Shown in pieces: positions 4,594 through 62,972 of a stretch of 64,000 nt of DNA. The DNA is from Acidobacteriota bacterium (lineage in GTDB: Bacteria > Acidobacteriota > Thermoanaerobaculia > Thermoanaerobaculales > Sulfomarinibacteraceae), in NCBI GenBank assembly GCA_022340775.1, contig JAJDNH010000025.1, positions 2,007 to 66,006 of the forward strand, given 5' to 3'. Position 1 is the stretch's first letter; each line of letters starts with the position of its first letter. The notes under the pieces are model-generated. The model saw only the letters and a program-made list of their open reading frames with translations, was not told the origin of the DNA and did no database searches. Both the position numbers and the translations under genes were made by a program.

Positions 4594-4860
4594 CCGCAGC
4601 GCAGGCGAGCGAGCGTGGGAGCCTCGAGCGCACGGTGGTGCTGGGCCCTGCCCTGGCGAGCTCGAGTGAAATGTCTGCCGTGCAAATGGTTCTGAGTGAG
4701 GTTCCTCGATGTGGCCAGTGATAGAATGATCGTCGAGGGTACTGGAGGGTATCGATGGGTACGGCCACGTCTGCCGCGAGTTCGGCTGTCGGGAGGCGCC
4801 GGGCCAGCACCGACGTAGCAGGCTGTGGAGGGCGCCAGGAACGACGCCAAGCCGGCGGCC

Positions 4861-5337
4861 ATGTGTGACGAGGGGCGGCCCCGGGGCGTCGAGGCCGGGC
4901 TGACGGTCATCGAGCTGTTGGTCACTGGGGCGCTGATCGCGACGCTGGCGTCGATTGTCATACCGCATTACACGAGTGCACAGAAGAAGATGCGCGTCAC
5001 ACGAGCGGTGACCGAGATCCGCTCGCTCGAGGCCGATATCGGCGTCTACATCAATGATCACGGAGAGCCCCCCGACACGCTGGTTCAGGCCGGCATCAGC
5101 ACGCCGCTTGACCCTTGGGGCAACCCGTATCAGTACCTGAAGATCATCAACGGTGGACCGGGCGCGAACGGCCAATCCCGAAAGGACCACTCGATGGTGC
5201 CGGTGAACTCGGACTACGATCTCTACAGCATGGGTCCGGATGGCAAGAGCCAGCCAGCGTTCACCTCCCAATCGAGCCGCGACGACATCGTTCGTGCCGG
5301 AGACGGCGCCTATGTCGGCCCGGTGTCCGACTTCTGA
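4861..5337 (+). CDS. Type II secretion GspG-like pseudopilin / type IV pilin-like protein (orphan)
   Basis: Prepilin leader and N-terminal helix G|LTVIELLVTGALIATLASIVIP, with Glu at +5. GspG-like core is DPWGNPYQY...YDLYSMGPDGK. The start at ATG 4861 is an assumption. Confidence 0.7.
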   Translation: MCDEGRPRGVEAGLTVIELLVTGALIATLASIVIPHYTSAQKKMRVTRAVTEIRSLEADIGVYINDHGEPPDTLVQAGISTPLDPWGNPYQYLKIINGGPGANGQSRKDHSMVPVNSDYDLYSMGPDGKSQPAFTSQSSRDDIVRAGDGAYVGPVSDF

Positions 5338-5351
5338 GGACGGGGGCAGGG

Positions 5352-18918: not shown

Positions 18919-20685
18919 TCAGCTCAGTGCCTCGTTGATCGCGTGGCGCAGGCGCGTGAGGCCGGCCGCGAGATCGCCGGTCAGGTGTACGCGAAGCAGG
19001 CGCCGGCCACGCTCCGCCAACACCTCGAGATCGCCGCGCGCCTGTGCCTCTTCGACGGTACCGAAAGTGTAGCTCCGGCCGGGGACCGGAAGGTCGTCCG
19101 AAACAGTGGCGGTGAGCTGCAGGAAGACGCCGGAGTTGGGCCCCCCCTTGTACGCCTGGCCGGTGGAGTGGAGGAACCGGGGTCCGAAGCCGAGGCAGGT
19201 GGCAACCCGGCGATGGTTGCGTACCGTGTGTCTGAGGGCCTGGAGCTGCTCGATGTTGGCCGGACTCATGGCCAGGAATGCGACGATCGCAACGTAGTCG
19301 CTGGGCAGTGCCCGGGCAAGGTGCGCCTTGAGGTAGGCGGCAAGCGACGGGTGGCCTCCGGTAGCGGCGGCCAGCTCGGCCTCGTTCCCTTGGTCGGCGA
19401 AGAGCTGCAGGCCGTCCTCCTCGTAGAACGCGTTCTGCGGCGGCAGGGCGCCGGTGGACTCGACCTCATCGGTCAGCCGTCGTGCGGCCACTTTGGCCGC
19501 CTCGACATCGGGCTGGTCGAACGGGTTGATTCCGAGCGCCATGCCGGCCGCCGCGGTTGCGATCTCCCAGTGGAAGAACTCCTGGCCGAGGTCCTGCCGG
19601 TCGCGCAACATGATGTCGACAATGGGGTGGCCAGCCTGCTCGATCCGGTCGAGGGCCGCACCTACTCCGTCGTCGTCATCTCCCTCCACGGCTAGACGGA
19701 CGAACAGACGATCGTTGCCATACGCGCTCGGTGGGCCCGGTTGCTCCCCATCGACCGGTATCAACCCCTTGCCTCGCTTGCCGGTCGACTCGGCCAACAA
19801 CTGCTCCAGCCAGGCACCGAGACTGCGCACTCGATTCGAGGGCAGGATGGTCACCTTGTCTCGTCCCGCCCTTGCGGCCGCCCCCAGCACCGCTCCCAGG
19901 ACCAGGCCGGGGTTCTGTGCCACCGGGTTGTCGGCGGCGCACGCTTCCACCATTTCGCCCGCACGGTCGAGAAGCCCGGCCACGTCGAGACCCGTGAGCG
20001 CCGCCGGCACGAGACCGAAGTCCGAGAGCGCGGAGTACCGGCCGCCGATCGAGGGGACGCCGTGGAACAGGTGGCGAAAGCCGTCTTCCTGGGCCAAGCC
20101 CTCGAGAGGCGATCCGGGGTCCGTGACGGCGATGAACCTCCTCCCCGGGGGGCGACCCAGCGCTTGCTCGACCCGCTGGAAGAAGTAGCTCAGGAGGATG
20201 TTCGGCTCGAGCGTCGTGCCGGACTTGCTGGAGACAATGAACCACGTCGAAGCCAGGTCGACGGCGTTTTCTACGGCAGCGATCTGGACGGGGTCCGTGG
20301 TGTCCAGGACCAGGAGCTCGGGAAAGCCGTCGGCGCTGCCGAAGACGTTTGACAGCACTTGCGGCGCAAGGCTTGAGCCACCCATACCCAGCAGCACGAG
20401 GCCGGATGGCCTGTTCTGGCGGACATCCTCGGCGAGGCGCAAGAAGCGCTCCAAGTGGCCCCGCTGCTCACTGACGATGTCGAGCCAGCCAAGCCACTTC
20501 TCCTCTCCGCTCGACGTCCACAGGGAGGCGTCGTGCGCCCAGAGGCGGCCGGCCACGTCGTCAGTGGCCCATTGCTCGAGAAGAGCCTCGACTTCTGCCG
20601 CGAAAGCGGCGGGGAGACGAAGGGTCTGGTGCACCGCCGTGACAGCCTCGGCGCCCGTGCGGAGTGGTTTCTGAGTGGGGTTCAT
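18919..20685 (-). CDS. pgi: Glucose-6-phosphate isomerase
   Basis: SIS-domain blocks LLGMGGSSLAPQV and FIVSSKSGTTLEP, followed by GGRYSALS. Confidence 0.85.
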   Translation of the reverse strand: MNPTQKPLRTGAEAVTAVHQTLRLPAAFAAEVEALLEQWATDDVAGRLWAHDASLWTSSGEEKWLGWLDIVSEQRGHLERFLRLAEDVRQNRPSGLVLLGMGGSSLAPQVLSNVFGSADGFPELLVLDTTDPVQIAAVENAVDLASTWFIVSSKSGTTLEPNILLSYFFQRVEQALGRPPGRRFIAVTDPGSPLEGLAQEDGFRHLFHGVPSIGGRYSALSDFGLVPAALTGLDVAGLLDRAGEMVEACAADNPVAQNPGLVLGAVLGAAARAGRDKVTILPSNRVRSLGAWLEQLLAESTGKRGKGLIPVDGEQPGPPSAYGNDRLFVRLAVEGDDDDGVGAALDRIEQAGHPIVDIMLRDRQDLGQEFFHWEIATAAAGMALGINPFDQPDVEAAKVAARRLTDEVESTGALPPQNAFYEEDGLQLFADQGNEAELAAATGGHPSLAAYLKAHLARALPSDYVAIVAFLAMSPANIEQLQALRHTVRNHRRVATCLGFGPRFLHSTGQAYKGGPNSGVFLQLTATVSDDLPVPGRSYTFGTVEEAQARGDLEVLAERGRRLLRVHLTGDLAAGLTRLRHAINEALS

Positions 20686-47412: not shown

Positions 47413-48000
47413 CTAGAGCGAGACGGGGCGGGAGCCGGGCTTCTCGATCGGCCTGCCCTCCGCACACAGCGGGCACTGAGCGGGGTCCCAGGTCGGGAAG
47501 CTCACCGTCAGCAGGGCCGCATAGGGTAGGTTGTCGAACGGATTCTCGCTGCCGGAACGGTTCACGATTGACGCCAGGGCGATGACCCGCGCGCCCGCCT
47601 TCTCCAGAACCTCGATGACCTCGCGCGTCGACTTTCCTGTGGTCACCACGTCCTCGACCACAACGGCTCGTTGCCCCGATCTCACTGCAAAGCCGCGACG
47701 CAAGGTCATGTTGCCTTCCTGACGTTCGGTGAAGATGAAAGGCAGCTCGAGGGTGCGAGCCGTTTCGTGACCGATAATGAGACCACCCAGTGCGGGCGAC
47801 ACAATCAACTCCGGCTCGACCTCAAGCCGTGACACGGCGGCCGCGAGGAGCCTGCCGGCACGCTCGGCGCGACGCGGGTCGGCAAGGAACAGGGCGCACT
47901 GGAGGTAGTCGCCGGAATGCAGCCCTGAGGAGAGGCGGAAGTGGCCACGCCGGTGGGCGCCCGCTGCGGTCAGGTCATCGAGGGTCAACGGCGTCGTCAT
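47413..48000 (-). CDS. pyrE: Orotate phosphoribosyltransferase
   Basis: GHFRLSSGLHS is present. The PRPP loop is VVVEDVVTTGKST. Confidence 0.9.
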   Translation of the reverse strand: MTTPLTLDDLTAAGAHRRGHFRLSSGLHSGDYLQCALFLADPRRAERAGRLLAAAVSRLEVEPELIVSPALGGLIIGHETARTLELPFIFTERQEGNMTLRRGFAVRSGQRAVVVEDVVTTGKSTREVIEVLEKAGARVIALASIVNRSGSENPFDNLPYAALLTVSFPTWDPAQCPLCAEGRPIEKPGSRPVSL

Positions 48001-49346
48001 GAGGGCTCCCGTTCGATCCCGTAGGTCTGGATTTTCTTGTACAGGTTGGAGCGCGGCGTGTCGATGGCGCGAGCCGTGGCGGCAATGTTCCAGCCGTTGA
48101 GCTCCAGCTGATGGGCGATGTAGGCTCGCTCCGCGGCCCGCTGGAAGTCGTGAAGCGTCGGAGCGTCCAGTAGCCCGCTGGTCTCCGCGGCGGCTGGTGC
48201 GCCCAGAAAGTCAATGCTGCGGATGACATCATCGAGCTCCATGATGACGGCGCGCTCGACAGTGTTTTTGAGCTCGCGGACGTTGCCGGGCCATGCGTAG
48301 CGGCAGAGCTCGGCGAGGGCCGCCTCGTCCCACCGCTTGAGGCGTCGGTTGTACTCCTCGCATGAGGCCCTCGTCAGGTGCTCCACGAGCAGCGGGATGT
48401 CCTCGGCGTGCTCGCGCAAGGGGGGCGTTCTCAACATGACCACCGCGAGCCTGTAGTAGAGGTCCTCGCGGAACCTCCCCTCGGTCACCTCGTGTACCAG
48501 GTCCTTGTTGGTGGCTGCGATGACCCGGACATCGACCGTGAAGGGCTCGCCGGCGCCGACCGGCTCGACCTCGCCATCCTGAAGCACGCGCAGTACCTTG
48601 GCCTGGGTCTTAAGCGACATGTCGCCGACCTCATCGAGGAAGATCGTTCCGCCGTTGGCTTGCACGAACTTCCCCACCTGTCGCCGGTGGGCGCCAGTGA
48701 ACGAGCCCTTCTCGTGCCCGAACAGCTCGGATTCGATCAACTCCTCGGGGATGGCGGCGCAGTTGACGCGGATGAAGGCCGCCTTGGCTCGGGCCGAGAG
48801 ACGGTGGAGACGACGAGCCACCAGCTCCTTTCCGGTGCCGGACTCACCTCGCACGAGAACGGTTGCCCGTGACGGGGCAACACGCGCGATCTCCTCGCGC
48901 AGCCGGCGCATGACGAGGCTGTCGCCGAGCAGTGGAGGCGGCTCGAGGTCGGTGGTTTCTTGACGGGCGAGGCGCCCTTGAGCAACCGCGCCGCGGATTG
49001 CCAGCAGCAGCTCGGAGCGGTCCGGCGGCTTGGTCAGGTAAGAGGCCGCTCCCGCCTCTAGGCAGTCGCGTGCCGTGAACTCGTCGCCGTGGCCGGTGAG
49101 GATCACTACCGGGATCTCCAGCCCGCGCTGGCGGAGGTTCTCCATCAAGCGCAAGCCGTCCATGCCGGGCATCTTGATGTCGAGCAGCATCGCGTCGGGA
49201 GGCGTCGTGTCGAGCCTGTCCAGCGCCTGAAAAGCATCCGACGCCTCATCGACCTGATAACCGGCGCCGCTCAGGATCCGCTGCAGGATCTTCCGGACCC
49301 CCTGTTCGTCGTCGACGATCAGAACCCGGCCTTCCACCGATCTCAC
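47997..49346 (-). CDS. Sigma54-dependent response regulator (NtrC family: REC + AAA+ + Fis-type HTH)
   Basis: VLIVDDE...LLDIKMPGMDG, GESGTGKE, GAFTGA-like GSFTGA, and a C-terminal HTH AATARAIDTPRSNLYKKI. Confidence 0.9.
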   Translation of the reverse strand: MRSVEGRVLIVDDEQGVRKILQRILSGAGYQVDEASDAFQALDRLDTTPPDAMLLDIKMPGMDGLRLMENLRQRGLEIPVVILTGHGDEFTARDCLEAGAASYLTKPPDRSELLLAIRGAVAQGRLARQETTDLEPPPLLGDSLVMRRLREEIARVAPSRATVLVRGESGTGKELVARRLHRLSARAKAAFIRVNCAAIPEELIESELFGHEKGSFTGAHRRQVGKFVQANGGTIFLDEVGDMSLKTQAKVLRVLQDGEVEPVGAGEPFTVDVRVIAATNKDLVHEVTEGRFREDLYYRLAVVMLRTPPLREHAEDIPLLVEHLTRASCEEYNRRLKRWDEAALAELCRYAWPGNVRELKNTVERAVIMELDDVIRSIDFLGAPAAAETSGLLDAPTLHDFQRAAERAYIAHQLELNGWNIAATARAIDTPRSNLYKKIQTYGIEREPS

Positions 49347-50872
49347 CCCTCCACGTCGAACGTTACGCCCTGGGCCAACGGCAGCTCGCGGCCCCAGTTG
49401 ATGGTACAGGTCTGTCGGCGCATGTAGGCCTTCCAGGCGTCCGATCCCGCCTCACGTCCGCCGCCGGTGTCCTTCTCCCCGCCGAACGCGCCGCCGATCT
49501 CCGCCCCGGAGGTTCCGATGTTGACGTTGGCGATGCCGCAGTCCGAACCCTCGTGAGACAGGAAACGCTCCGCCGTGTACAGGTTGGAGGTGAAGATCGC
49601 CGATGACAGGCCCTGGTCCACCGAGTTGTGGAGGGCTATCGCCTGCTCGAGCTCATCGAACTCGAAGATGTAGAGGATGGGGGCGAACGTCTCGTCGCGC
49701 GTGATCTCCATGCCGGCATGCGCCCTGACGAGGGTTGGCTCGACGTAATATCCGGGGCGATCGAGGCGCCGGCCGCCGTACAGAATCTCGCCTCCCTGCT
49801 CGCGAATGGTATCGATGGCCGAAAGGTAAGACTGCACGGCGGCCTCGTTGACCATCGGTCCCATCAGCGTTCCCGGATCGAGGGGGTCTCCGATCGGGAT
49901 GCTGCCGTACGCGCTGACCAGTCGCTGGGTCATCGCTGGCGCAGCGCCTTTCTGCAGGAAAAGCCGCCGCAGCGACGTGCAGCGTTGGCCTGCGGTGCCG
50001 ACAGCGGCAAACAGGATCGCACGCAGGGCGAGGTCCTGGTCGGCATCGTCAGTGACGATGACGCCATTGTTGCCGCCCAGCTCGAGGATCGAGCGGCCGA
50101 AGCGGCGGGCCACCGCCTCGCTGACGTGCCGTCCCATGTCGCATGAGCCGGTGAACGAGACGAGTGGCACCCGGCGGTCGTTGATCATCCGTTCGCCGAC
50201 CAGTGACCCGGAACCGATCGTGAGATTGAAGATGCCCTCGAGGCCGTGCCGCTTCATGATCGGGTTGACGATGTTCTGGACGGCGATCGCGGTCAGCGGC
50301 GTTGAGGACGAGGGCTTCCAGATCATGGTGTCGCCGCAGGCGGCGGCGACGGCGGCGTTCCACGCCCATACCGCGACCGGGAAGTTGAAGGCGGTGATGA
50401 TGCCGACGATGCCGAGCGGATGCCACTGCTCGTACATCCGGTGGCGGGAACGCTCGGAGTGCATGGTGAGACCCGAGAGCTGGCGCGACATGCCGACTGC
50501 GAGGTCACACATGTCGATCATCTCCTGCACCTCCCCGAGGCCCTCGGAGAGAATCTTGCCCATCTCTAGAGACACCAGCCGGCCGAGGTGTTCCTTGTTT
50601 GTGCGCAGAGCGTCCCCCAGCTCCCTCACGATGAGCCCCCGTTGCGGGCCCGGCATCATCCGCCACGACGAGAACGCCGTCTGCGCGGTTGTGACAACCT
50701 GCTCGTAGGCTGCCTCGTCGGCCTGGACCACCTTGGCGATCGGGGTGCCGTCCGCGGGGTTGATCGACACCAACTCGCGGCCGCCGGCCACCGAGATCCA
50801 CTCGCCGGCGCAGGCTCCGGGATTGCTCTCCTTGATGCCGAGCTCGTCGAGCAGCTTCCTGATATCGGTCAT
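49343..50872 (-). CDS. Aldehyde dehydrogenase, ALDH7/piperideine-6-carboxylate (aminoadipate semialdehyde) dehydrogenase-like
   Basis: ILELGGNN, FAAVGTAGQRCTS (catalytic Cys), and an ALDH7-like N-terminus GIKESNPGACAGEW. The start is ATG 50872 with an AAGGAGG SD. Confidence 0.85.
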   Translation of the reverse strand: MTDIRKLLDELGIKESNPGACAGEWISVAGGRELVSINPADGTPIAKVVQADEAAYEQVVTTAQTAFSSWRMMPGPQRGLIVRELGDALRTNKEHLGRLVSLEMGKILSEGLGEVQEMIDMCDLAVGMSRQLSGLTMHSERSRHRMYEQWHPLGIVGIITAFNFPVAVWAWNAAVAAACGDTMIWKPSSSTPLTAIAVQNIVNPIMKRHGLEGIFNLTIGSGSLVGERMINDRRVPLVSFTGSCDMGRHVSEAVARRFGRSILELGGNNGVIVTDDADQDLALRAILFAAVGTAGQRCTSLRRLFLQKGAAPAMTQRLVSAYGSIPIGDPLDPGTLMGPMVNEAAVQSYLSAIDTIREQGGEILYGGRRLDRPGYYVEPTLVRAHAGMEITRDETFAPILYIFEFDELEQAIALHNSVDQGLSSAIFTSNLYTAERFLSHEGSDCGIANVNIGTSGAEIGGAFGGEKDTGGGREAGSDAWKAYMRRQTCTINWGRELPLAQGVTFDVEG

Positions 50873-50944
50873 CAGCAGTCCTCCTTGACTTCTCCGATCC
50901 TCCGGACGCGGGGAGTGTACCACCGGCGACGGCCGCTGAAGCCG

Positions 50945-54886: not shown

Positions 54887-54961
54887 GGGAGGTTAGCTCA
54901 GCGGCAGAGCACCTGCCTTACACGCAGGGGGTCGTGGGTTCAAATCCCCCACCTCCCACCA
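54887..54961 (+). tRNA. tRNA-Val (anticodon UAC), CCA encoded
   Basis: Cloverleaf folded by hand: acceptor GGGAGGU/ACCUCCC, D-stem GCUC/GAGC, anticodon stem CCUGC/GCAGG with loop CUUACAC, T-arm GUGGG-UUCAAAU-CCCCC (one U.C mismatch). Length 75 nt. Confidence 0.85.
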
Positions 54962-54978
54962 CCTGCCGCGCCTGATGC

Positions 54979-55055
54979 GGGGTCGTAGTTCAGCTGGTTA
55001 GAACGCCGGCCTGTCACGCCGGAGGTCGAGGGTTCGAGTCCCTTCGGCCCCGCCA
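54979..55055 (+). tRNA. tRNA-Asp (anticodon GUC), CCA encoded
   Basis: Acceptor GGGGUCG/CGGCCCC (one U.G), D-stem GUUC/GAAC, anticodon stem CCGGC/GCCGG with loop CUGUCAC, T-arm GAGGG-UUCGAGU-CCCUU. Length 77 nt. Confidence 0.9.
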
Positions 55056-55068
55056 CTCCACTCACACA

Positions 55069-55097
55069 GCCGCCCTCCAGGCGGCCGTTTTCGTTTC
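55069..55097 (+). terminator. Rho-independent terminator after tRNA-Asp
   Basis: GCCGCC-CUCCA-GGCGGC hairpin (55069-55085) followed by CGUUUUCGUUUC. Confidence 0.55.
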
Positions 55098-55248: not shown

Positions 55249-57741
55249 CTATACCGTGAGTCCGGGGACCTTCACGATCGGGTGCCCCTCGTCGTCGACC
55301 TCGAAGCCGGTAGGCAACCTGAAGTCGGGATCCAGGGACCGGTAGTAGTCCACGTCGTAGGCCGTGAGCCGTAGCCGAGCTAAGCCGCGGCGGTGACCGT
55401 TGACGATCTCCGCGGTGAGGCCGAAGTCGACCTCGCCGAGGTCGGTGCTGACAATGTAGCGGGGTAGCTCGCGTCCACTGCCGTTCGTTCTCAAGGAGCT
55501 GGCGATGTCCAGTACCCTGGACAAGGGGATCGGTTGCTTGGCGTTCCACCATTTCTGGGGCGGCAACCCGGCCACGTAGAGGTGGTGGACCTCGATGCCG
55601 AGTCGACGGCAGGCCGCCGTGATGTCGGTGATTGTCCGACAGTTGTCGTTGATGGCAGCAAGCAGGGGAATGCTGGCGTGGACGGTGACCCCCCGCCTGC
55701 GGAGCGCCTTGACGAGTCGCTGGTGGTCCGGCTTGAGATCGGTCGGATGGAGGAGGAGAGTCTCGACCTCGAGGCGTGTCGGGTTGACGCTCGACAGCCG
55801 GTTCAAGGAGGTGATCCGGCGCACCATCCCGTCCGAGAAAGCCTCCGGTTCAAAAGCCGCAGCCAGGCTCCGCAGCCGCACGGCGTTGACATGGGGCAAC
55901 GGTTGCAGGCGCTCGACGATCACCCCGACTTTGTACAACGTGTGGGCCACGTCCCGGCGGGAGAAGAGGACGACATCGGTGATGCGGGTGTTGGAGGAGA
56001 TGTACTCGACGGAGCGCGCGATCTCCTCCTCCGCTGCCTCACAGTCGAGCTCCACGCGGGTCATGTGCGGGCGGGACAGTGACCGGAGGCCGGTGTCGAC
56101 GAGGGAAGGCCCCAGCAAGGGGTCGTGTCGAAAGCGCTGCCGGATCTCGTTGAGAGCTTCCTCTCGGGCGTGTTCGGGCAGGGGAGTGGCTTCGGCCAGC
56201 GGGCGCGCCCAGCTGCGTGCCTCGCGTGGCCCTAACAGAAAGGCAGAGTCGCCCACTTTGGCCATCAGCTTCGCATCGAGGGTTCCTTCCCGGTTGGGCC
56301 TTGCTATCCGGGACAGGTCGAGGATCGGGGCGAACGTCTCGAGGTACTCGAGAGAGTAGGGTGTTCGCAGCCACACGAAGCGTTCGTCGTCCTGGTCGAT
56401 TTCTACCGCCCATCCACTGGTGCCCCAGTCGATTTTGCCGATGGAGGTCGCGGTGCACAGATGCGGGACTGCGCGATCCGAGAGGGTTGCCCTCAGGACT
56501 CGGGCGGCCTGGAGGCCGGAGGAAAGCGTTGATGCGTACCTGCGGTTGCCCTGGATCGGGCTGCACGGCATGAAGATGTAGTGCATTTCGGCGCCGGCGC
56601 CCCGCAGCCTACGGTAGAGCTCGGCGAGGGTCTCTCCCAAGTCGTTGCAGCCACCGACATAGGGAGTCTGCACGTAGACGCCGATGCCGTTCCCCACCAA
56701 CTCGGTAATGACCTCGAGGCTTCTGATGGTCACCTCGTCGGGGTGGATGAAATGGGTGGCGATCTCGATCTTCCTGTCTCTCTGGGCCAGCTCGAGCTGC
56801 TTGCGCTTCAGGTAGTCGAGCCAGAAGCCGTCCCGGCCGGTGAACAGGGCAGGGTGGTAGGAGAGCGCCCGGGTGGCGACCCGCAGCGTCTCCACGTGGG
56901 GGACCTTGGCGAGGCCGTCGATGGCTTGAGTCAGGGTAGGCCGGTTCATGAAAGGATCGCCCCCGGTGAGGACGACCTCCTTGATCTCGGGGCAACTCTT
57001 GATGTACGCCACTCCCAGGTCGACGTGCTTCTGAGTCGGCGCTCTCTGGGTCCGACACTCCTTGTGCTTGCGGAAGCAGAACCGGCAGAAGACGGGACAC
57101 ACCATGTTGAGGATGAAGATCACCCGGTTGCGGTACATCTGCTCGATGACCCCGCGGTGGAACTGGCCGACCCAGGTGTGGACGAGGCCCTCGCGGTCCA
57201 ACTCGTCCGCGAAAGGCTGGTACTGGTAGGCGACGGCGGGCGAAAGCCGCATCTGGCGAATGGTGTGGGCCGAGAAGCGAGCTGGGTAAACCGCAAGCAC
57301 CTCTCTCAGGGCGTCACGTTCCTCCTCGGGGACCTTCCGGTTGGTGAGCTTCTCGAGACGGCTGAGAGTCTTGACATCGATGATCGCGTCTCCGGGAATC
57401 AGCACTTCCAGGATAGCGAGCAGGAGAGCGTAGGGGATCCGGACCCCGTCCACCGCGACCTGTGCGGCTACCTGTCCGTTGGCCAGTGCGAGCTGCGCCA
57501 GTACCTCTTCGAAGAATCCCTGTGCGTCGTCCTCGTAACCAGCCGCAGTGAGCAGCCTCAGGAGGCGGCTTTCGCCGTCCCCCTCGCCGGTCACGGTACA
57601 AAAGTCCGTGTCGACCAGCGGCTCCGCACCGTACAGCTCAAGGAACTCGACTGTGGCCCGTTCGAGTGCCTTGAGGGGAACCTGCAGCTTCTCCTTGGAG
57701 GGAAGAAACTCGACTGAAAGATCTGCCTGCGGTGTCTGCAC
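55249..57741 (-). CDS. Large KamA-family radical SAM protein (aminomutase-like) with a second, degenerate KamA-like module
   Basis: CPVFCRFC (C215/C219/C222), LTGGDP, THFIHPDE and SIGKIDW are in the first module. The second module (about aa 560-775) parallels it but lacks the Cys triad, GGDP and the Lys. GTG start with an AGGAGG SD. Confidence 0.8.
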   Translation of the reverse strand: MQTPQADLSVEFLPSKEKLQVPLKALERATVEFLELYGAEPLVDTDFCTVTGEGDGESRLLRLLTAAGYEDDAQGFFEEVLAQLALANGQVAAQVAVDGVRIPYALLLAILEVLIPGDAIIDVKTLSRLEKLTNRKVPEEERDALREVLAVYPARFSAHTIRQMRLSPAVAYQYQPFADELDREGLVHTWVGQFHRGVIEQMYRNRVIFILNMVCPVFCRFCFRKHKECRTQRAPTQKHVDLGVAYIKSCPEIKEVVLTGGDPFMNRPTLTQAIDGLAKVPHVETLRVATRALSYHPALFTGRDGFWLDYLKRKQLELAQRDRKIEIATHFIHPDEVTIRSLEVITELVGNGIGVYVQTPYVGGCNDLGETLAELYRRLRGAGAEMHYIFMPCSPIQGNRRYASTLSSGLQAARVLRATLSDRAVPHLCTATSIGKIDWGTSGWAVEIDQDDERFVWLRTPYSLEYLETFAPILDLSRIARPNREGTLDAKLMAKVGDSAFLLGPREARSWARPLAEATPLPEHAREEALNEIRQRFRHDPLLGPSLVDTGLRSLSRPHMTRVELDCEAAEEEIARSVEYISSNTRITDVVLFSRRDVAHTLYKVGVIVERLQPLPHVNAVRLRSLAAAFEPEAFSDGMVRRITSLNRLSSVNPTRLEVETLLLHPTDLKPDHQRLVKALRRRGVTVHASIPLLAAINDNCRTITDITAACRRLGIEVHHLYVAGLPPQKWWNAKQPIPLSRVLDIASSLRTNGSGRELPRYIVSTDLGEVDFGLTAEIVNGHRRGLARLRLTAYDVDYYRSLDPDFRLPTGFEVDDEGHPIVKVPGLTV

Positions 57742-57821
57742 CCGGCCACCTCCTAACGATCCAAGTCGAGACTGGAGAGGAGCGACCTGCCCTGCTCATC
57801 GCGACCGTCGATGCGAAGCCG

Positions 57822-58700
57822 TCACCGCAGCGTCTTGCACCACACGTGCATGTTCTCGAAGCGGCCTGCGATGTGGCAGTTTTTGACCAACGTGCCGGTC
57901 CACTCGTAGCCACGGTTGTAGAACACGCGGTTCATGCCGGCCGAACGGGCCCTGGCGATGGTGTACAGGTAACGAATGTCCCGCTCCGCCATGTCCTCCT
58001 CGAGGGCTGCGAGGGTGTGCTGCGCCAGTCCCAGCCCTCTCCGATCCGGAAGCGTGGCGAAATCGGTCATTTCCGCGTTGTGGTGTGCACGAATGGTGTC
58101 TGCTGATGCGGCGGCGATCAGGGATCCTCCGTCGTCCCGAACGATCCTATAGACCACGTCGGACAGCATGGTCTCGATCAGGAAGCCGGGGTCCGTTATC
58201 GGGAACGGATAGCTCTTGAAGACCGTGTCGTAGAGCGCGGCGAGCTCGTCGGCGTCTTCCGGCCGTGCCACCCGCATCAGGTAGCCGTCGGGGAGCGCCG
58301 GCACGGAGGGATCTGCAGGGCGGGAGCGGATCTTGCGGAGGATTGATTCCTCCTCTTCCGCAGCCGGGCGCTGCCGACGGTTCTGATCGAGAAACCTCGA
58401 CATCACCACGGCGGGCTTCCCGTTGAAGTAGCCGGAGATCGTGGCTTCGGCCTGCATGCCGGCAGCCTCGAGAGCGGCTCGATCCTCGACCGGCGCCTTC
58501 ACGAAGATCTTGCCGAGCTTCAGGTCAAGCGCCTTCTCGGCGAGCTCTTCGACCATGCCGATGAGGTTGGATCCCTCATAGTCGAGAATGTGGACCCTGC
58601 GGTTCAGTCCGCTGAAGACGGCTCGGGCTCTGTAGCCCTGTCCGTCGACAGAGAGTCGGGTATCGATCTCGGAACCCGCGGTGATTCGGACTGCGGTCAT
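57822..58700 (-). CDS. ablB: GNAT acetyltransferase, AblB-like (putative beta-lysine N6-acetyltransferase)
   Basis: A two-part architecture typical of AblB (N-terminal regulatory-like half, C-terminal GNAT with ATLPDRRGLGLAQHTL). The start overlaps the ablA stop (ATGA). Confidence 0.7.
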   Translation of the reverse strand: MTAVRITAGSEIDTRLSVDGQGYRARAVFSGLNRRVHILDYEGSNLIGMVEELAEKALDLKLGKIFVKAPVEDRAALEAAGMQAEATISGYFNGKPAVVMSRFLDQNRRQRPAAEEEESILRKIRSRPADPSVPALPDGYLMRVARPEDADELAALYDTVFKSYPFPITDPGFLIETMLSDVVYRIVRDDGGSLIAAASADTIRAHHNAEMTDFATLPDRRGLGLAQHTLAALEEDMAERDIRYLYTIARARSAGMNRVFYNRGYEWTGTLVKNCHIAGRFENMHVWCKTLR

Positions 58701-60037
58701 GCGCTCCTCCCTGTCGGTTCCTCCTCCTCGCCTTCCTCCTCTGGCGACAGGGCAGATGGAATGAGTGCGATGTTACCTGGGTCATCGTCGAATAGGCCGG
58801 CCACACCGACCGTTTCCAGTCCCTCGCGGAGGACCTCGCGGCAGTGCGAGCAGGGGTGCCCCTCCGAGCACATCCCGATGTAGTCCCTGGGCTCCTCGTA
58901 GGCGACGATACGGCCTTCGAAGTTGCGGAGGATCACCTTGTGCTCGTGCTGCGAGACCACGTAGTTGGGATGCACGGGGATCTTGCCGCCGCCACCGGGG
59001 GCATCCACGACGAAGGTGGGTACGGCGAGGCCCGAGATGTGGCCGCGCAGGTGCTCCATGATCTCGATTCCCTTGGCGACAGTGGTCCGAAAGTGCATGA
59101 GACCCTCGGCGAGGTCGCACTGGTAGATGTAGTACGGACGAATACGGTTGACGGTGAGCTTGTGCATCAGCTTGCGCATCAGTGCCCAGCAGTCGTTGAC
59201 GCTTCGCAGCAACACGGTCTGGTTCCCGAGGGGGATGCCGGCGTCGGCCAGGAGTGCCACTGCGGCCTCGGACTCGGAAGTGAACTCCTTGGGTACGTTG
59301 AAGTGCGTGTTGAGATAGATGGGGTGGTAGCGTTTCAAGGTCGCTGCCAGGTTCGGCGTGATCCGCTGGGGCATGGTCACCGGCAGCCGCGAGCCGATGC
59401 GGATAATCTCGACCGACGGCGCTTCCGCACGCAAGCGCTTCAGGATGTGCTCGAGGCGTTCGTCGGACAGCAGCAGGGGATCGCCGCCCGAGAGGAGCAC
59501 GTCCCTGATTTCCGTGTGCTCGTTCAGGTAGGCGATTCCGGCATCCAGCTGGGCATCCGTGATCGCAGCCGGCCGCTCGCCGACCTTGCGCTTTCGGGTG
59601 CAGTGCCGGCACAGCATGGCGCACTCATGCACCACGACCCACAGCACGCGGTCCGGGTAGCGATGAGTCATGCCCGGAGCCACCGAGTCTCCCTCCTCGT
59701 TGAGGGGGTCCTCGATGTCAAAGTCGCTCAGCGTCAGCTCGCCCTCACCGGGAATCGCCTGCAGCCGGATCGGGCACTCGGGGTCGTCGGGGTCGATCAG
59801 CGAGGCGTAGTAAGGCGGAACCGCGAATCGGAAGCGATCGAGGGCGCGCTCGATCGTACGTTGCTCGCGGGGCGTCATGGGCAGGATGCGGGCGAGCTCC
59901 TCGGCGGTAGTGATGCGGTGGCGCATCTGCCAGTGCCAGTCGCGCCACTCCTCGTTGGGAACGTCCCGCCAGATGGAGCGCTCCTTGTAGGAAGGCTGAG
60001 CCCGGGACGCCGAACGCTCGGTGACTGGGATCGTCAT
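58697..60037 (-). CDS. ablA: Lysine 2,3-aminomutase (KamA/AblA)
   Basis: CAMLCRHCTRK (CxxxCxxC), LSGGDPL, NTHFNVPKE, GNQTVLLRSVND, YYIYQCD and VVDAPGGGGKIP (PLP Lys). The start is ATG 60037 with an AAGGA SD. Confidence 0.9.
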   Translation of the reverse strand: MTIPVTERSASRAQPSYKERSIWRDVPNEEWRDWHWQMRHRITTAEELARILPMTPREQRTIERALDRFRFAVPPYYASLIDPDDPECPIRLQAIPGEGELTLSDFDIEDPLNEEGDSVAPGMTHRYPDRVLWVVVHECAMLCRHCTRKRKVGERPAAITDAQLDAGIAYLNEHTEIRDVLLSGGDPLLLSDERLEHILKRLRAEAPSVEIIRIGSRLPVTMPQRITPNLAATLKRYHPIYLNTHFNVPKEFTSESEAAVALLADAGIPLGNQTVLLRSVNDCWALMRKLMHKLTVNRIRPYYIYQCDLAEGLMHFRTTVAKGIEIMEHLRGHISGLAVPTFVVDAPGGGGKIPVHPNYVVSQHEHKVILRNFEGRIVAYEEPRDYIGMCSEGHPCSHCREVLREGLETVGVAGLFDDDPGNIALIPSALSPEEEGEEEEPTGRSA

Positions 60038-60256
60038 GGTTTTTCCTTTCGGGCACGCCAAACGGCTAGCGGGTCTCGCCTGGGGAGATGCAGCCGCACT
60101 GGAGGACGAATGGGGGGAGCATTACAGACACCAATTGCATTGCATGCTAAATATTATCACACAGAACGCTTCGGGGCAAGAGATGAGAAGAGACCAGGGG
60201 GCCGGGGTCGAGGGTGAGGAGCGGGGCCGAATCCCCGAGCGCTCGAAGGCTGATCT

Positions 60257-60832
60257 CTACCGCTTTGCCTTGTCCGGCTGGAGCCGCTTCAGGAACGTCT
60301 CGGTCCCTTCCGAGCTGGCATCGAGGGGTCCGGTGGACAGGATCGGGCCTGCTTCGACGCTCTCCGCCTCCATCAGGGCCACAATCCGCTGTAGCGAGGA
60401 CAGGATCTGGGTCTGTTCCCACTCCGGAAGCCCGCTGAACGCATGCGTGAAGTGCTCCTGCAGCAGGGGCGGTGCCTGTGCGATGAGCGTCTCCGCCGCG
60501 TCTGTGGAGGAGACGATGACCTTCCTTCTGTCCTCTGTGCTTCTCACCCGTTCAACAAGGCCCTTCCGATCCAGGCGGTCGAGGATGCCGGTGAGCGTCG
60601 CCTGGCTCAGGTTGACCGCATGTGCGAGCTCGCTGACGGTTTGGGGAGAGCTCTCGGCAAGCTCCTTCAAGACGACGAGCTGAGGCCCGGTGAGGCCATA
60701 GCGTTGGACGAGCGTGCGCGAGTGAAGGTCGATGGCTCGAATGATGCGTCGCAGGGCCGCCAGAACCCCCCTCGTGGTCCGTGGCTCTGAGTTCGATCCG
60801 GACGGTATGGCCTTGGCACTCATCGACGGCAT
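60257..60832 (-). CDS. MarR family transcriptional regulator
   Basis: GLTGPQLVVLKELAESSPQTVSELAHAVNLSQATLTGILDRLDRKGLVERVRSTEDRRKV. The start is ATG 60832. The 443-aa ORF to 61588 is an antisense-of-infC extension. Confidence 0.85.
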   Translation of the reverse strand: MPSMSAKAIPSGSNSEPRTTRGVLAALRRIIRAIDLHSRTLVQRYGLTGPQLVVLKELAESSPQTVSELAHAVNLSQATLTGILDRLDRKGLVERVRSTEDRRKVIVSSTDAAETLIAQAPPLLQEHFTHAFSGLPEWEQTQILSSLQRIVALMEAESVEAGPILSTGPLDASSEGTETFLKRLQPDKAKR

Positions 60833-60916: not shown

Positions 60917-61012
60917 TGTTTCGTGGTGCGGGTGCGAGAGAATCCCGAGGAGCCGGCGAAGCGGCAGCGGGCCTCCACCTGTCGGTACAAACCCACGGAA
61001 AGGAGGGTTCCT

Positions 61013-61564
61013 ATCAGAGGAAGAAGACGGTTTTTTCGCGAGCCGCCGCCTCGCCCCGAGCATCGACTCAACGAGATGATCCGGATCTCGCCGGTGCGGG
61101 TGGTCGGCACCGACGGCGAGCAGGTGGGGGTGATTCCGGTCGAGGAGGCCAGGGCAATGGCCGGCGAACTGGGGCTCGATCTCGTCGAGGTCGCCCCGAC
61201 TGCCCGTCCTCCCGTGTGCAAGATAATGGACTATCACCGGTTCCTGTTCGAACGCGAGAAAAAGGCCAAGGAGGCCAAACGGCACCAGCACCGGATCGAG
61301 ACCAAAGAGGTCAAGTTCCGGCCGAACATCAGCGACCATGACTTTTCCACCAAGGTGAAGCTGGCGGAGCGGTTTCTCCGCACCGGCTTCCACGTCAAGC
61401 TCACCGTGATGTTCCGCAGGCGCGAGCTGCGGCGCCCGGAGAATGGATACGAGCTCCTGACACGGGCGTGCGAGCGTCTCGACGACGTGGCAGACGTAGC
61501 AAGCGCACCACCGGAGAACCTGCAGGGCCGGGATCTCTCGATGGTGCTCAAGCCCGACAACTGA
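61013..61564 (+). CDS. infC: Translation initiation factor IF-3, probable non-canonical AUC start
   Basis: RLNEMIRISPVRVVGTDGEQVGVIPVEEARAMAGELGLDLVEVAPTARPPVCKIMDY..VKFRPNISDHDF aligns to IF-3. A strong SD (GGAAAGGAGGG) lies 6 nt before in-frame ATC 61013. GTG codons at 60923-60932 lack an SD. Confidence 0.8.
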   Translation: MRGRRRFFREPPPRPEHRLNEMIRISPVRVVGTDGEQVGVIPVEEARAMAGELGLDLVEVAPTARPPVCKIMDYHRFLFEREKKAKEAKRHQHRIETKEVKFRPNISDHDFSTKVKLAERFLRTGFHVKLTVMFRRRELRRPENGYELLTRACERLDDVADVASAPPENLQGRDLSMVLKPDN

Positions 61565-61580: not shown

Positions 61581-62972
61581 GTGCACATCGCCGACTACCT
61601 GATCCTCGCTGCGTACTTTCTCGGCATGCTGGGGATCGGCATGTACTTCCAGCGTCGCCAGACGAGTCTCGAGGAGTACTTCGTTGGCGGCAGGGACATG
61701 AGCGCCCGGCACATCGGGCTGTCCGTGGTGGCGACCGACGTCGGTGGGGGTTTCTCGATCGGGCTCGGAGGCCTCGGCTTTGTGATGGGGATCTCCGCTT
61801 CGTGGCTGCTTTTCTCGGGCCTCCTCGGTGCCTGGGTCTCGGCCGTCATCCTGGTGCCGAGAGTCAAGAGCCTGGGTTCCATTCACCAGCACAGGTCGTT
61901 TCCCGACTTCCTGGCTCACAGGTTCGGGGAGCCAACACGACTGGTGGCAGCGGTCGTCTCGGCCGTCGGCTACGCGGGCTTCACCGGCTCACAGCTGCTG
62001 GCCGGAGGCAAGCTCGCGTCGGCGGCTTTCCAGTTCAACCTGACCACTGCGGTGCTGCTGATGTCTTTCGTCATAGTCGGTTACACCGCTCTCGGCGGCC
62101 TCGAGGCGGTCGTCTACACCGATACCGCACAATGGGGAATCCTGTTTGTCGGTCTTCTCGGCCTTGGCGTACCGCTCGGCTTCTACGAGGTCGGAGGGTG
62201 GTCGGGGCTCAAGGGCGCCCTGCCGCCGAAGTTCTTCTCGCTCGGCAACGTGAGCACGATGCAGATCGTGACCTGGATGGTGACCATCGTGCCGATCTGG
62301 TTTGTAGCGATGACCTTGTACCAGCGAATCCACGCCTCGCGCGACGTCGCTACTGCGCGCCGGGCGTGGTTCATGGCAGGGCTGCTGGAGTACCCGGGAA
62401 TGGCGTTCATGGGGGCCGTCCTCGGCATGTTCTCGAGGGTGCTGTACCCCCACGTCGACCCGGAGATGGGCTTGCCGCTGCTTATCCGAGACGTGCTACC
62501 CGCCGGCGCCACAGGCCTGATCCTGGCCGCCTACTTCGCGGCCATCATGTCGACTGCGGACTCCTGTCTACTGGCCAGCGTGGGTAACCTGGTCGATGAC
62601 ATCATCGGACGCCATGTGGCTCCCTCGGCATCGGAGCAGTCCATGCTCCGCCTCTCTCGGATCCTGACCGCAGTCGTCGGTTTCGGCTCAGTCGCGTTTG
62701 CCCTCTACATCCCTCAGGTGATCGACTCGATCCTGCTTGCCTATTCCTTCATGGTGGCGGGCCTGTTCTTTCCCACCCTGGGGGCCCTGTTCTGGCGCCG
62801 CGTCAGCGGAACCGCAGCCTTCTGGAGCGTGGTCGGCGGCGGCGGGACGACGGTATTCCTGACAGTCGCCCACACCGCCGTTCGGCTGGACCCGGTGTTT
62901 TACGGCCTAGCGGTTTCCGGGGCTGTGCTTGTGATCCTCACCTTCTGGTTTCCTTCCAAGCGGTTGGCCTGA
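61581..62972 (+). CDS. Sodium:solute symporter (SSS) family transporter
   Basis: About 13 TM helices, with an N-terminal block YFLGMLGIGMYFQRRQTSLEEYFVGGRDM typical of the SSF. GTG start. Confidence 0.85.
   Translation: MHIADYLILAAYFLGMLGIGMYFQRRQTSLEEYFVGGRDMSARHIGLSVVATDVGGGFSIGLGGLGFVMGISASWLLFSGLLGAWVSAVILVPRVKSLGSIHQHRSFPDFLAHRFGEPTRLVAAVVSAVGYAGFTGSQLLAGGKLASAAFQFNLTTAVLLMSFVIVGYTALGGLEAVVYTDTAQWGILFVGLLGLGVPLGFYEVGGWSGLKGALPPKFFSLGNVSTMQIVTWMVTIVPIWFVAMTLYQRIHASRDVATARRAWFMAGLLEYPGMAFMGAVLGMFSRVLYPHVDPEMGLPLLIRDVLPAGATGLILAAYFAAIMSTADSCLLASVGNLVDDIIGRHVAPSASEQSMLRLSRILTAVVGFGSVAFALYIPQVIDSILLAYSFMVAGLFFPTLGALFWRRVSGTAAFWSVVGGGGTTVFLTVAHTAVRLDPVFYGLAVSGAVLVILTFWFPSKRLA

Follow-up and report, generated by a model that had tools for sequence, protein, structure and literature searches.

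A fused active/degenerate KamA-type protein encoded beside ablA and ablB as a candidate aminomutase for acylated lysine

Introduction

What does a second, double-length gene of the KamA family contribute to a locus that already encodes a lysine 2,3-aminomutase and a β-lysine acetyltransferase? The question is raised by a stretch of 64,000 nucleotides from an Acidobacteriota bacterium (NCBI GenBank assembly GCA_022340775.1, contig JAJDNH010000025.1, positions 2,007 to 66,006 of the forward strand), which we call the window. Between positions 55249 and 60832 of the window, four co-oriented open reading frames (ORFs) were confirmed on the minus strand: a marR-family regulator gene, ablA, ablB and a gene for a protein of 830 residues, which we refer to as the long gene and abbreviate X in gene orders. 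Published descriptions of classical ablAB loci include no third gene (PMC3543383, PMC2821294), and our literature search found no description of a long KamA protein or of a third abl gene.

The characterised radical S-adenosylmethionine (SAM) aminomutases that depend on pyridoxal 5'-phosphate (PLP) form a very small set, namely the lysine, glutamate and arginine enzymes and EpmB. Here, we compare the long protein with these families, describe the gene neighbourhoods in which it occurs across several phyla, and tentatively propose that it is an aminomutase acting on a lysine-type substrate with an acylated side chain.

Results

The long protein combines an equipped and a degenerate KamA-like barrel

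The long protein (MCG6961991.1 in NCBI, from an Acidobacteriota metagenome-assembled genome (MAG)) had been described in an earlier, sequence-only reading of this DNA as a second KamA-family enzyme of roughly double size. Its relationship to KamA and its double length hold, whereas the picture of one large enzyme does not: the protein consists of a 120-residue extension followed by a duplicated barrel. Residues 1-120 (57382..57741; all coordinates of the long gene are on the minus strand) form a family-specific N-terminal extension with a GxGDGE motif, for which a β-hairpin and helices are predicted with confidence. It has no Pfam or NCBIfam match and is moderately conserved (0.54). Residues 121-500 (56242..57381) align in hhalign with lysine 2,3-aminomutase (LAM)/AblA as a KamA-like unit carrying the full catalytic kit. 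They are joined by a poorly conserved linker (residues 501-553, 56083..56241), in which the alignment shows a mean majority-residue frequency of 0.41 and 0 invariant columns and the AlphaFold2 model shows one long helix (523-539), to a degenerate second KamA-like barrel that was also recognised by hhalign (residues 554-830 plus stop codon, 55249..56082).

The two halves were compared with each other and with LAM using slices of a 27-sequence family alignment. Residues 121-475 matched LAM/AblA with an hhalign probability of 99.9 (E 2e-34), and the C-terminal half (residues 540-830) matched the N-terminal half with the same probability (E 8e-32, 24% identity over 234 columns). The match of the C-terminal half to LAM was weaker (probability 98.9, E 2e-17). 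Because the profile homology between the halves exceeds that between the C-terminal half and LAM, the protein arose by internal duplication of a KamA-like unit that had already diverged. The NCBIfam models of the KamA type match it in two separate stretches, all of them below cutoff.

An AlphaFold2 model built from an alignment of 83 sequences reached a predicted local distance difference test score of 91.9 and a predicted template modelling score of 0.94, and in this model both barrels are packed as one rigid body. With the model as query, the top Foldseek match is LAM (2A5H, E 1e-18), followed by generic radical SAM folds, with resemblance to NifB, PFL-AE, viperin and further radical SAM structures. 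The family profile, searched against all PDB sequences, returned 2A5H as its sole match (E 1.5e-31).

In the C-terminal half, SRPHMTRV stands at the position of the cluster motif, the two glycines of the GGD motif are gone and E770 occupies the position of the PLP-binding lysine. Across the 83 sequences, this last position is always Glu or Asp. The half nevertheless keeps 22 columns that are invariant in these sequences, including H559/T561/R562, E658, E660 and R757, which indicates that the second barrel is still under selection. The LAM_C domain (PF12544) was not detected in the long protein by Pfam, and no Cys-rich segment follows K436. Judged by these comparisons, the long protein is a covalent pseudo-dimer of the lysine 2,3-aminomutase fold, with one catalytically equipped and one dead barrel. 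A genuine split version of the family, with the halves on two genes, was also sought and could not be established; many half-length library matches look like contig-end fragments.

The catalytic residues are invariant and the distal pocket is altered

The N-terminal half carries the complete set of residues expected of a 2,3-aminomutase: C215, C219, C222, R224 (LAM R134), T259-G260-G261-D262, R291, Q358 (LAM Q258) and K436. The three cysteines belong to the radical SAM [4Fe-4S] cluster motif CPVFCRFC (C215-C222, codons at 57076..57099). GGD and Q358 are the expected contacts to SAM, and R134 of LAM, the counterpart of R224, binds the carboxylate. K436 (codon at 56434..56436) lies in an IGK motif that aligns with the GGGGK motif of LAM, at the position of the PLP-binding K337, and is the putative PLP lysine. 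C215/C219/C222, R224, G260-G261-D262, R291, Q358 and K436 are invariant in 83 of 83 homologues. Assignment to the radical SAM proteins draws on the CxxxCxxC motif and on a Fer4_12 match of 22.4 bits (cutoff 22); the PF04055 score of 26.3 lies just under its cutoff of 29.5.

The far end of the substrate pocket is different. Asp293 and Asp330 of LAM reportedly bind the ε-ammonium group of lysine, and glutamate 2,3-aminomutase is said to have Lys and Asn at these two positions; EpmB keeps acidic residues at both. In profile alignments, D293 corresponds to S394 of the long protein and D330 to A431/T432. S394, T430 and T432 are invariant in the 83 homologues, and residue 431 is Ala in 76/83 and Ser in 7/83. 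Inspection of the discriminating substrate residues, as the sequence-only reading had suggested, thus yields neither the lysine-type Asp pair nor the Lys/Asn pair reported for the glutamate enzyme. The pocket cannot simply be called neutral, because charged residues without a LAM counterpart are newly conserved, namely D335 (78/83), E385 (82/83) and the invariant pair D422-R423. This picture of the pocket is drawn at the level of the alignment. Distant didomain clades carry His at position 394, suggesting that specificity varies within the wider family.

The long protein lies outside the characterised aminomutase families

Scoring against the NCBIfam models placed the long gene in none of the characterised families. 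The highest score was obtained with the arginine 2,3-aminomutase model (TIGR04468), at 159.9 bits against a cutoff of 600. It was followed by AblA_like_2 (152 bits, cutoff 396), AblA/KamA (TIGR03820; 142.8 bits, cutoff 525.4), the KamA subfamily (TIGR00238; 140.9 bits, cutoff 199.2), glutamate 2,3-aminomutase (TIGR04368; 134.1 bits, cutoff 650) and EpmB (TIGR03821; 120.3 bits, cutoff 369.3). As the NCBIfam and Pfam scans gave only KamA-type matches below threshold, membership of a known family was rejected. The long protein is, by these profile scores, outside every characterised aminomutase family, and the label 'lysine 2,3-aminomutase' that its members bear in NCBI and JGI, including MCG6961991.1 itself, is probably incorrect, or at best unproven.

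The nearest relatives of the N-terminal half form a clade of single-domain KamA-like proteins of 340-412 residues (P0157, P0158, P0160, P0174, P0177, P0180, P0183). At 27-35% identity and 130-200 bits, they are closer to it than canonical KamA is, and they are likewise under every NCBIfam cutoff.

The family itself is widespread. More than 900 homologues of about 830 residues share 48-60% identity across phyla, and the long gene is encoded in 388 species-level genomes from at least five phyla. It is compact, since clustering of the library at 50% identity left only about 14 full-length representatives, with identities as low as 38%. It occurs in Acidobacteriota (Thermoanaerobaculia, Holophagae, Aminicenantes), Gemmatimonadota, Calditrichota, KSB1, Muiribacteriota and, most prominently, Desulfobacterota. 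Two carriers are cultured, Desulfocicer vacuolatum DSM 3385 and Desulfopila sp. IMCC35006, and the genome locus closest to the window comes from an uncultured Thermoanaerobaculia.

Many neighbouring genes encode AblB-family acetyltransferases or amide hydrolases

Gene neighbourhoods were compared for 80 genome loci and 80 metagenome loci, of which 129 remained after dereplication at 90% identity, and partner genes were counted within 4 kb of the long gene. An M23-like hydrolase gene was present in 51 of the 129 loci (40%), an AblB-family acetyltransferase gene, often without ablA, in 20 (16%), a YtcJ-type Amidohydro_3 gene also in 20 (16%) and ablA in 10 (8%). Where at least 3 kb of sequence was available on both sides, 42 of 58 loci had one or more of M23-like, AblB, Amidohydro_3 and AblA. 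Because ablA is found in a minority of loci and AblB and the hydrolases dominate, the functional link of the long gene would seem to be with acetyl-amine chemistry, carried by AblB and the deacylases, rather than with ablA as such. In a neighbour-joining tree of the family, contexts with AblA or AblB lie on at least six deep branches.

The clade of the window has the order (marR)-ablA-ablB-X together with a sodium:solute symporter (SSF) gene. This arrangement is found in loci L001, L090 and L096, whose long proteins are 81-83% identical to that of the window, and is shared by L003/L081 and L093/L171 at 58-60% identity. The order ablA-ablB-X recurs in L001, L003, L013, L090, L093 and L096; in L013, an unclassified locus, a GNAT acetyltransferase gene is inserted (ablA-ablB-GNAT-X). 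In L004 from Gemmatimonadota, the genes ablA-SSF-ablB are convergent on X. Synteny with ablAB, which the sequence-only reading had proposed to analyse, holds in the window's own clade and in L004 and L013, and is a minority arrangement in the family at large, with ablA in 8% of loci. A lack of co-conservation with ablAB, which that reading had named as evidence against its view, is not what we found, because the pair is kept in L001, L090, L096, L003/L081, L093/L171, L004 and L013.

In Desulfobacterota and in one Calditrichaceae locus, an ablB-family gene immediately precedes X and the flanking sequence, out to as much as 10 kb, contains no ablA; in L024 and L025, no ablA was found within 10 kb on either side of X. 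The AblB-family acetyltransferases of these loci score 289-328 bits with TIGR03827, at least as high as the AblB of the window. The converse, ablA without ablB, occurs in L073, L137 and L149, which have the order ablA-X-ornithine aminotransferase (TIGR01885, 538 bits).

The commonest arrangement, seen in Desulfobacterota and Aminicenantes-like Acidobacteriota, is X followed by a gene for a cytoplasmic M23-like protein of 220 residues, whose start lies about 10-60 nt from the stop codon of X in most loci of this type. The M23-like protein (PF01551; for example L070 12472-13137 and L170 10512-11219) keeps both zinc motifs, HxxxD and HxH, and lacks a signal peptide. It resembles the central domain of PRK06148 kinase-M23-aminotransferase fusions. 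A literature search on M23 and hydroxylysine-kinase fusions found nothing useful. The cytoplasm is an unusual setting for an M23 peptidase. In the clade of L163-L167, a YtcJ-type amidohydrolase gene starts 62 nt downstream of the X stop codon on the same strand, and in L170 genes for M20 deacylases, an MR_MLE enzyme and a GNAT follow X.

Desulfobacterota loci carry a larger set of genes, which is divergent from or convergent on X-M23. It encodes a regulator of the IclR or sigma-54 type, an ABC importer resembling PotABCD or LAO systems, a proline-racemase-like protein of the Cys/Cys type, Amidohydro_3, a class I/II aminotransferase and AblB. In L040, L047, L052, L070 (2196-13137) and similar loci, a conserved group of genes for IclR, two ABC permeases, a PotD-like binding protein, an ATPase, the proline-racemase-like protein and a YtcJ-type amidohydrolase, with an aminotransferase and AblB as optional members, is divergent from X-M23. 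One Thermodesulfobacteriota MAG (MAG071, JAYEMW01) has two long-gene paralogues, L025 and L057, one in an AblB-X context with Amidohydro_3, proline-racemase-like and ABC genes and the other in an IclR/X-M23 context; this may point to two roles within a single cell or to contamination of the bin.

The long gene also stands alone, namely in Gemmatimonadota, Calditrichota, KSB1 and several Thermoanaerobaculia loci. An Rfam scan of 19 stand-alone loci found no regulatory RNA and returned only a group II intron, in L088. There (3444-5569), the intron and its reverse transcriptase lie between a GNAT gene and an SSF gene, upstream of the stand-alone X and with a BCCT transporter gene near.

The window locus is a predicted four-gene unit

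Upstream of the long gene, the window encodes genuine AblA and AblB. The ablA product (58697..60061, minus strand) scores 563 bits with TIGR03820 (cutoff 525.4) and 115 bits with LAM_C, and has the CAMLCRHC and GGGGK motifs. Of two possible starts, the ATG at 60037 with AAAGGAAAAA upstream of it is likelier than the TTG at 60061. The ablB product (57822..58700, minus strand; MCG6961992.1, putative β-lysine N-acetyltransferase in NCBI) scores 288 bits with TIGR03827 (cutoff 205.1). Both equivalogs are adjacent and co-oriented, as is characteristic of the ablA-ablB acetyl-β-lysine system, formation of the product being a prediction, and the ablA stop codon overlaps the ablB start codon in ATGA. 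First in the cluster is the marR-family gene (60257..60832, minus strand; PF01047 MarR, 64 bits, and PF12802). A MarR homologue upstream of ablA is also found in L001, L081 and L090. A mechanical ORF of 443 residues reaching 61588 was rejected as the true extent of marR; it is a high-GC artefact, because infC occupies the other strand at 60923-61564. With these assignments, the sequence-only reading's MarR regulator, canonical lysine 2,3-aminomutase and AblB-like GNAT are confirmed above the model cutoffs, as is the ATGA overlap.

The spacer between ablB and the long gene (57742..57821, minus strand) measures 80 nt and contains TAGGAGGTGGCCGGGTG. The long gene has its own AGGAGG-N7-GTG start, again as first read. 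The GTG start is credible because homologues of about 830 residues align from residue 1. Terminator prediction found no terminator-like site in this spacer. The long gene, 80 nt from ablB and co-oriented with it, is thus predicted to be the final cistron of a marR-ablA-ablB-X unit. Two plus-strand genes, for tRNA-Val(tac) and tRNA-Asp(gtc), run convergently towards the 3' end of X, and a GC-rich terminator-like hairpin with a T-run comes after them (54887..55085); by this layout the tRNA pair with its hairpin marks the downstream end of the cluster.

The spacer between marR and ablA (60062..60256, minus strand) contains, at about 60135-60170, the AT-rich stretch TGTGATAATATTTAGCATGCAATGCAATTGG in surroundings of otherwise 65% GC. 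The stretch could serve as an ablA promoter with an extended -10 element, as a MarR operator or as both; a scan with the sigma-70 consensus found no promoter match within the spacer. Na+ and c-di-AMP riboswitches are known upstream of some ablA genes (PMC9337991). Neither is present in the window, where an Rfam scan found the two tRNAs only and no riboswitch or other regulatory RNA.

Divergent from marR is infC, encoding initiation factor IF-3 (60923..61564, plus strand; TIGR00168, 187 bits), an arrangement that recurs in L081. Beyond it lies a gene for a PutP-like SSF sodium:solute symporter (61581..62972, plus strand; TIGR00813, 152 bits, below the cutoff of 184). The sequence-only reading had noted this transporter as not adjacent. 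That description needs correction, as the symporter gene is parted from marR by infC only, with divergent transcription, and accompanies ablAB and X in related loci. Its homologues adjoin the locus in L001, L004 (13410-14846), L081 (4735-6084), L090, L093/L171 (3750-5153 in L171) and L095, where it adjoins a long gene-M23 pair, and it could be a transporter for an osmolyte or precursor of the system.

The lysine-catabolic ALDH7-type dehydrogenase noted before is real and indeed not adjacent, lying 4.3 kb away beyond three ORFs and two tRNAs. It is an L-piperidine-6-carboxylate (α-aminoadipic semialdehyde) dehydrogenase (49343-50923, minus strand; NF050084, 760 bits, cutoff 730). A link of this gene and the pipecolate pathway to the unit was rejected, as the dehydrogenase is not syntenic with the long gene in other loci. 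It lies upstream of a sigma-54 response regulator gene with an overlap of 4 nt, the pair spanning 47997-50923 on the minus strand. A tblastn search of the window with M23, Amidohydro_3, proline-racemase-like, aminotransferase, IclR and substrate-binding protein queries recovered only AblB and an unrelated ABC ATPase; the catabolic-type cluster of Desulfobacterota is therefore absent from the window. Two further window genes, both unrelated to the locus, encode an HmcF/TmcB/DsrK-like iron-sulfur protein (1359-3116, plus strand; below cutoffs) and a bifunctional transaldolase/phosphoglucose isomerase (18919-20685, minus strand; 797 bits, cutoff 712).

Discussion

A proposed aminomutase for an acylated lysine

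The reading that we favour, with a probability of about 35%, is that the long enzyme is a PLP/radical-SAM aminomutase for an N-acylated lysine-type substrate. That it would be an aminomutase follows from the invariance of the entire catalytic kit. Loss of the Asp pair and the presence of a true AblA in the same operon make free lysine an improbable substrate, and we infer that free glutamate and free arginine are not used either. An acylated distal amine is suggested because the interchangeable neighbours of the gene either make an amide (AblB) or break one (the M23-like, YtcJ-like and M20 hydrolases). The simplest candidate reaction would be the interconversion of Nε-acetyl-L-lysine and Nε-acetyl-β-lysine, and both Nε-acetyl-α-lysine and Nε-acetyl-β-lysine have been reported as compatible solutes (PMC9049628). 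In such an enzyme, the dead barrel would take the place of the partner subunit and of the Zn/LAM_C multimerisation domain of classical LAM. The operon in the window may then provide a second entry into, or an exit from, the acetyl-β-lysine osmolyte pool. The Desulfobacterota clusters, with their ABC importer, IclR regulator, hydrolases and aminotransferase, may use the same reaction for uptake, scavenging and catabolism. The stronger claim, that this is the first radical-SAM/PLP aminomutase on a side-chain-acylated amino acid, specifically Nε-acetyl-L-lysine/Nε-acetyl-β-lysine, built as a fused active/dead pseudo-heterodimer, is more doubtful than the general reading.

Several observations weigh against this proposal. 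The assignment of the substrate draws on the neighbouring genes and on two lost residues, and D335, D422, R423 and E385 could rebuild a site for a free amine in a pocket that was read from an alignment. None of the partner genes is found in 16 of the 58 well-flanked loci, and the stand-alone genes would better fit an enzyme for a common free amino acid. The window locus itself has no deacylase, and conversion of acetyl-β-lysine to acetyl-α-lysine would bring no obvious benefit in a biosynthetic operon. The only documented substrate of AblB is β-lysine (PMC9049628; PMC2821294), and an AblB-first route would require that it also acetylate α-lysine. In addition, the Desulfobacterota neighbourhoods are phylogenetically non-independent.

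If AblB receives the β-lysine that it is documented to use, the long protein could instead be a didomain lysine 2,3-aminomutase that makes β-lysine from free L-lysine, an isozyme of AblA in the window and a replacement for it in genomes with AblB and X only. This fits the at least 20 loci in which an AblB-family acetyltransferase gene immediately precedes X and ablA is missing from the surrounding 7-10 kb, as well as the invariant 2,3-aminomutase kit, the labels given by NCBI and JGI and the Desulfobacterota gene set, which mirrors the yodT-...-yodP-kamA operon of Bacillus subtilis. We hold it to be possible but doubtful, as both Asp residues that bind the ε-ammonium group are replaced (S394, A431/T432) and at least 10 non-redundant loci, that of the window among them, encode a bona fide AblA in the operon of X; duplicates of the same function within one operon would be unusual. 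Another free amino acid, such as ornithine, 2,4-diaminobutyrate, arginine or glutamine, is an unlikely substrate. The proximity to ablAB would then reflect co-regulation of osmolytes, with the long enzyme serving a second β-amino solute or a catabolic route. Such a role would suit the many phyla in which X stands alone, the SSF and BCCT transporters near several loci and the ornithine aminotransferase gene directly downstream in L073, L137 and L149, as well as the Cys/Cys proline-racemase-like gene and the basic-amino-acid/polyamine-type importers of Desulfobacterota. Ser and Thr at the distal-pocket positions would suit an amide or a shorter side chain, and His394 in the distant clades points to variable specificity in the wider family. 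However, an enzyme of this kind would leave the AblB-family acetyltransferases and amide hydrolases, immediate neighbours on many independent branches, unexplained; an acetylated mono-amino β-acid is an anion and not a typical solute; and the pocket residues are the same in all 83 close members, however much their neighbourhoods differ.

In lysine fermentation, KamA is followed by the B12-dependent β-lysine 5,6-aminomutase KamDE and by Kdd, an order mimicked by ablA-X-class III aminotransferase in L073, L137 and L149. The long protein as a radical SAM counterpart of KamDE, holding the product of AblA by its ε-amine on PLP and shifting that amine to C5, seems very improbable to us. A reversed β-lysine would place its carboxylate and ammonium groups at the sites of D293 and D330, which fits the Ser/Thr residues and D422-R423, yet R224, the α-carboxylate clamp beside the PLP-bound nitrogen, is invariant, AblB would block the ε-amine that is required, ablA is absent from most loci, and kce, kal and kdd were not found in the neighbourhoods examined. 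A non-catalytic paralogue that senses or regulates the abl pathway, one of the roles considered in the sequence-only reading, is the least probable explanation. A ligand could still bind to the dead half, which keeps HxTR with R562 in the place of R134, a ligand-binding residue of LAM. In the N-terminal half, however, all motifs for catalysis, with the residues for the cluster, SAM and PLP, are invariant across phyla; Pfam and NCBIfam show no DNA-binding or signalling domain, the cluster already has a dedicated MarR, and most of the family occurs without ablA.

An aminomutase for N-acylated lysine, our preferred reading, would have several consequences. The family would add a conserved branch, spread over many phyla, to the aminomutases, with a different pocket and a fused dead copy in place of the Zn-linked homodimer, and it is a possible source of a new biocatalyst for β-amino acids. 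The current 'lysine 2,3-aminomutase' labels inflate predictions of acetyl-β-lysine synthesis and lysine fermentation from metagenomes. If the enzyme links acetyl-α- and acetyl-β-lysine, or replaces AblA, the inference of osmolyte synthesis and turnover would change in Acidobacteriota, Gemmatimonadota and sulfate reducers. Bacteria would have an AblA-free route to acetyl-β-lysine, in which AblB acts first and isomerisation comes second. In combination with ABC importers and deacylases of the M23-like or YtcJ-like kind, the enzyme would also supply the missing catabolic route for this abundant osmolyte of methanogens and bacteria in anoxic sediments.

Comparison with known systems

In its cofactor logic, the long protein is LAM-like by sequence. 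It shares with LAM (2A5H/TIGR03820) the CxxxCxxC motif followed by Arg, the GGD motif, the Gln contact and the PLP lysine, and a genuine member of TIGR03820 is encoded two genes upstream. In contrast, it is only about 25-29% identical to LAM, lacks the LAM_C/Zn multimerisation domain, has S394 and A431/T432 in place of D293 and D330, and carries a dead barrel in cis and an extension of 120 residues.

The single-domain KamA-like clade has the motifs CPAYCRFCFRK, ERMY-DR, NHPDE and IGK in common with the N-terminal half, and its C-terminal 'D-G-x-I-V' tail is similar to the sequence with which either half of the long protein ends. Unlike the long protein, these relatives have one barrel, and their pocket residues are heterogeneous, with P0174 keeping both Asp residues. 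EpmB (YjeK), the aminomutase of EF-P β-lysylation and another KamA relative, likewise has no counterpart of the C-terminal domain by which LAM multimerises (PMC2821294). It differs from the long protein in being a single-domain enzyme of about 340 residues that acts on free lysine, and neither efp nor epmA was found among the loci with genes listed by Pfam, nor did clustering and tblastn reveal such a recurrent cluster in 161 loci. Glutamate 2,3-aminomutase (Eam) and the BlsG-type arginine aminomutase follow the same evolutionary logic as we propose here, as KamA-family enzymes that switched substrate via both distal-pocket residues, but both are single-domain proteins.

At the level of gene clusters, the closest parallel is the yodT-yodS-yodR-yodQ-yodP-kamA operon of B. 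subtilis, which encodes an aminomutase acting on free lysine, an AblB-like GNAT, an aminotransferase and an M20 deacylase. These four functions also come together in the Desulfobacterota clusters of the long gene. Where the B. subtilis operon, whose yodP-kamA part is cited in PMC9049628, has a canonical KamA and an M20 enzyme, these clusters have the didomain enzyme and M23-like or YtcJ-like hydrolases, and only they add an ABC importer, an IclR regulator and a proline-racemase-like gene.

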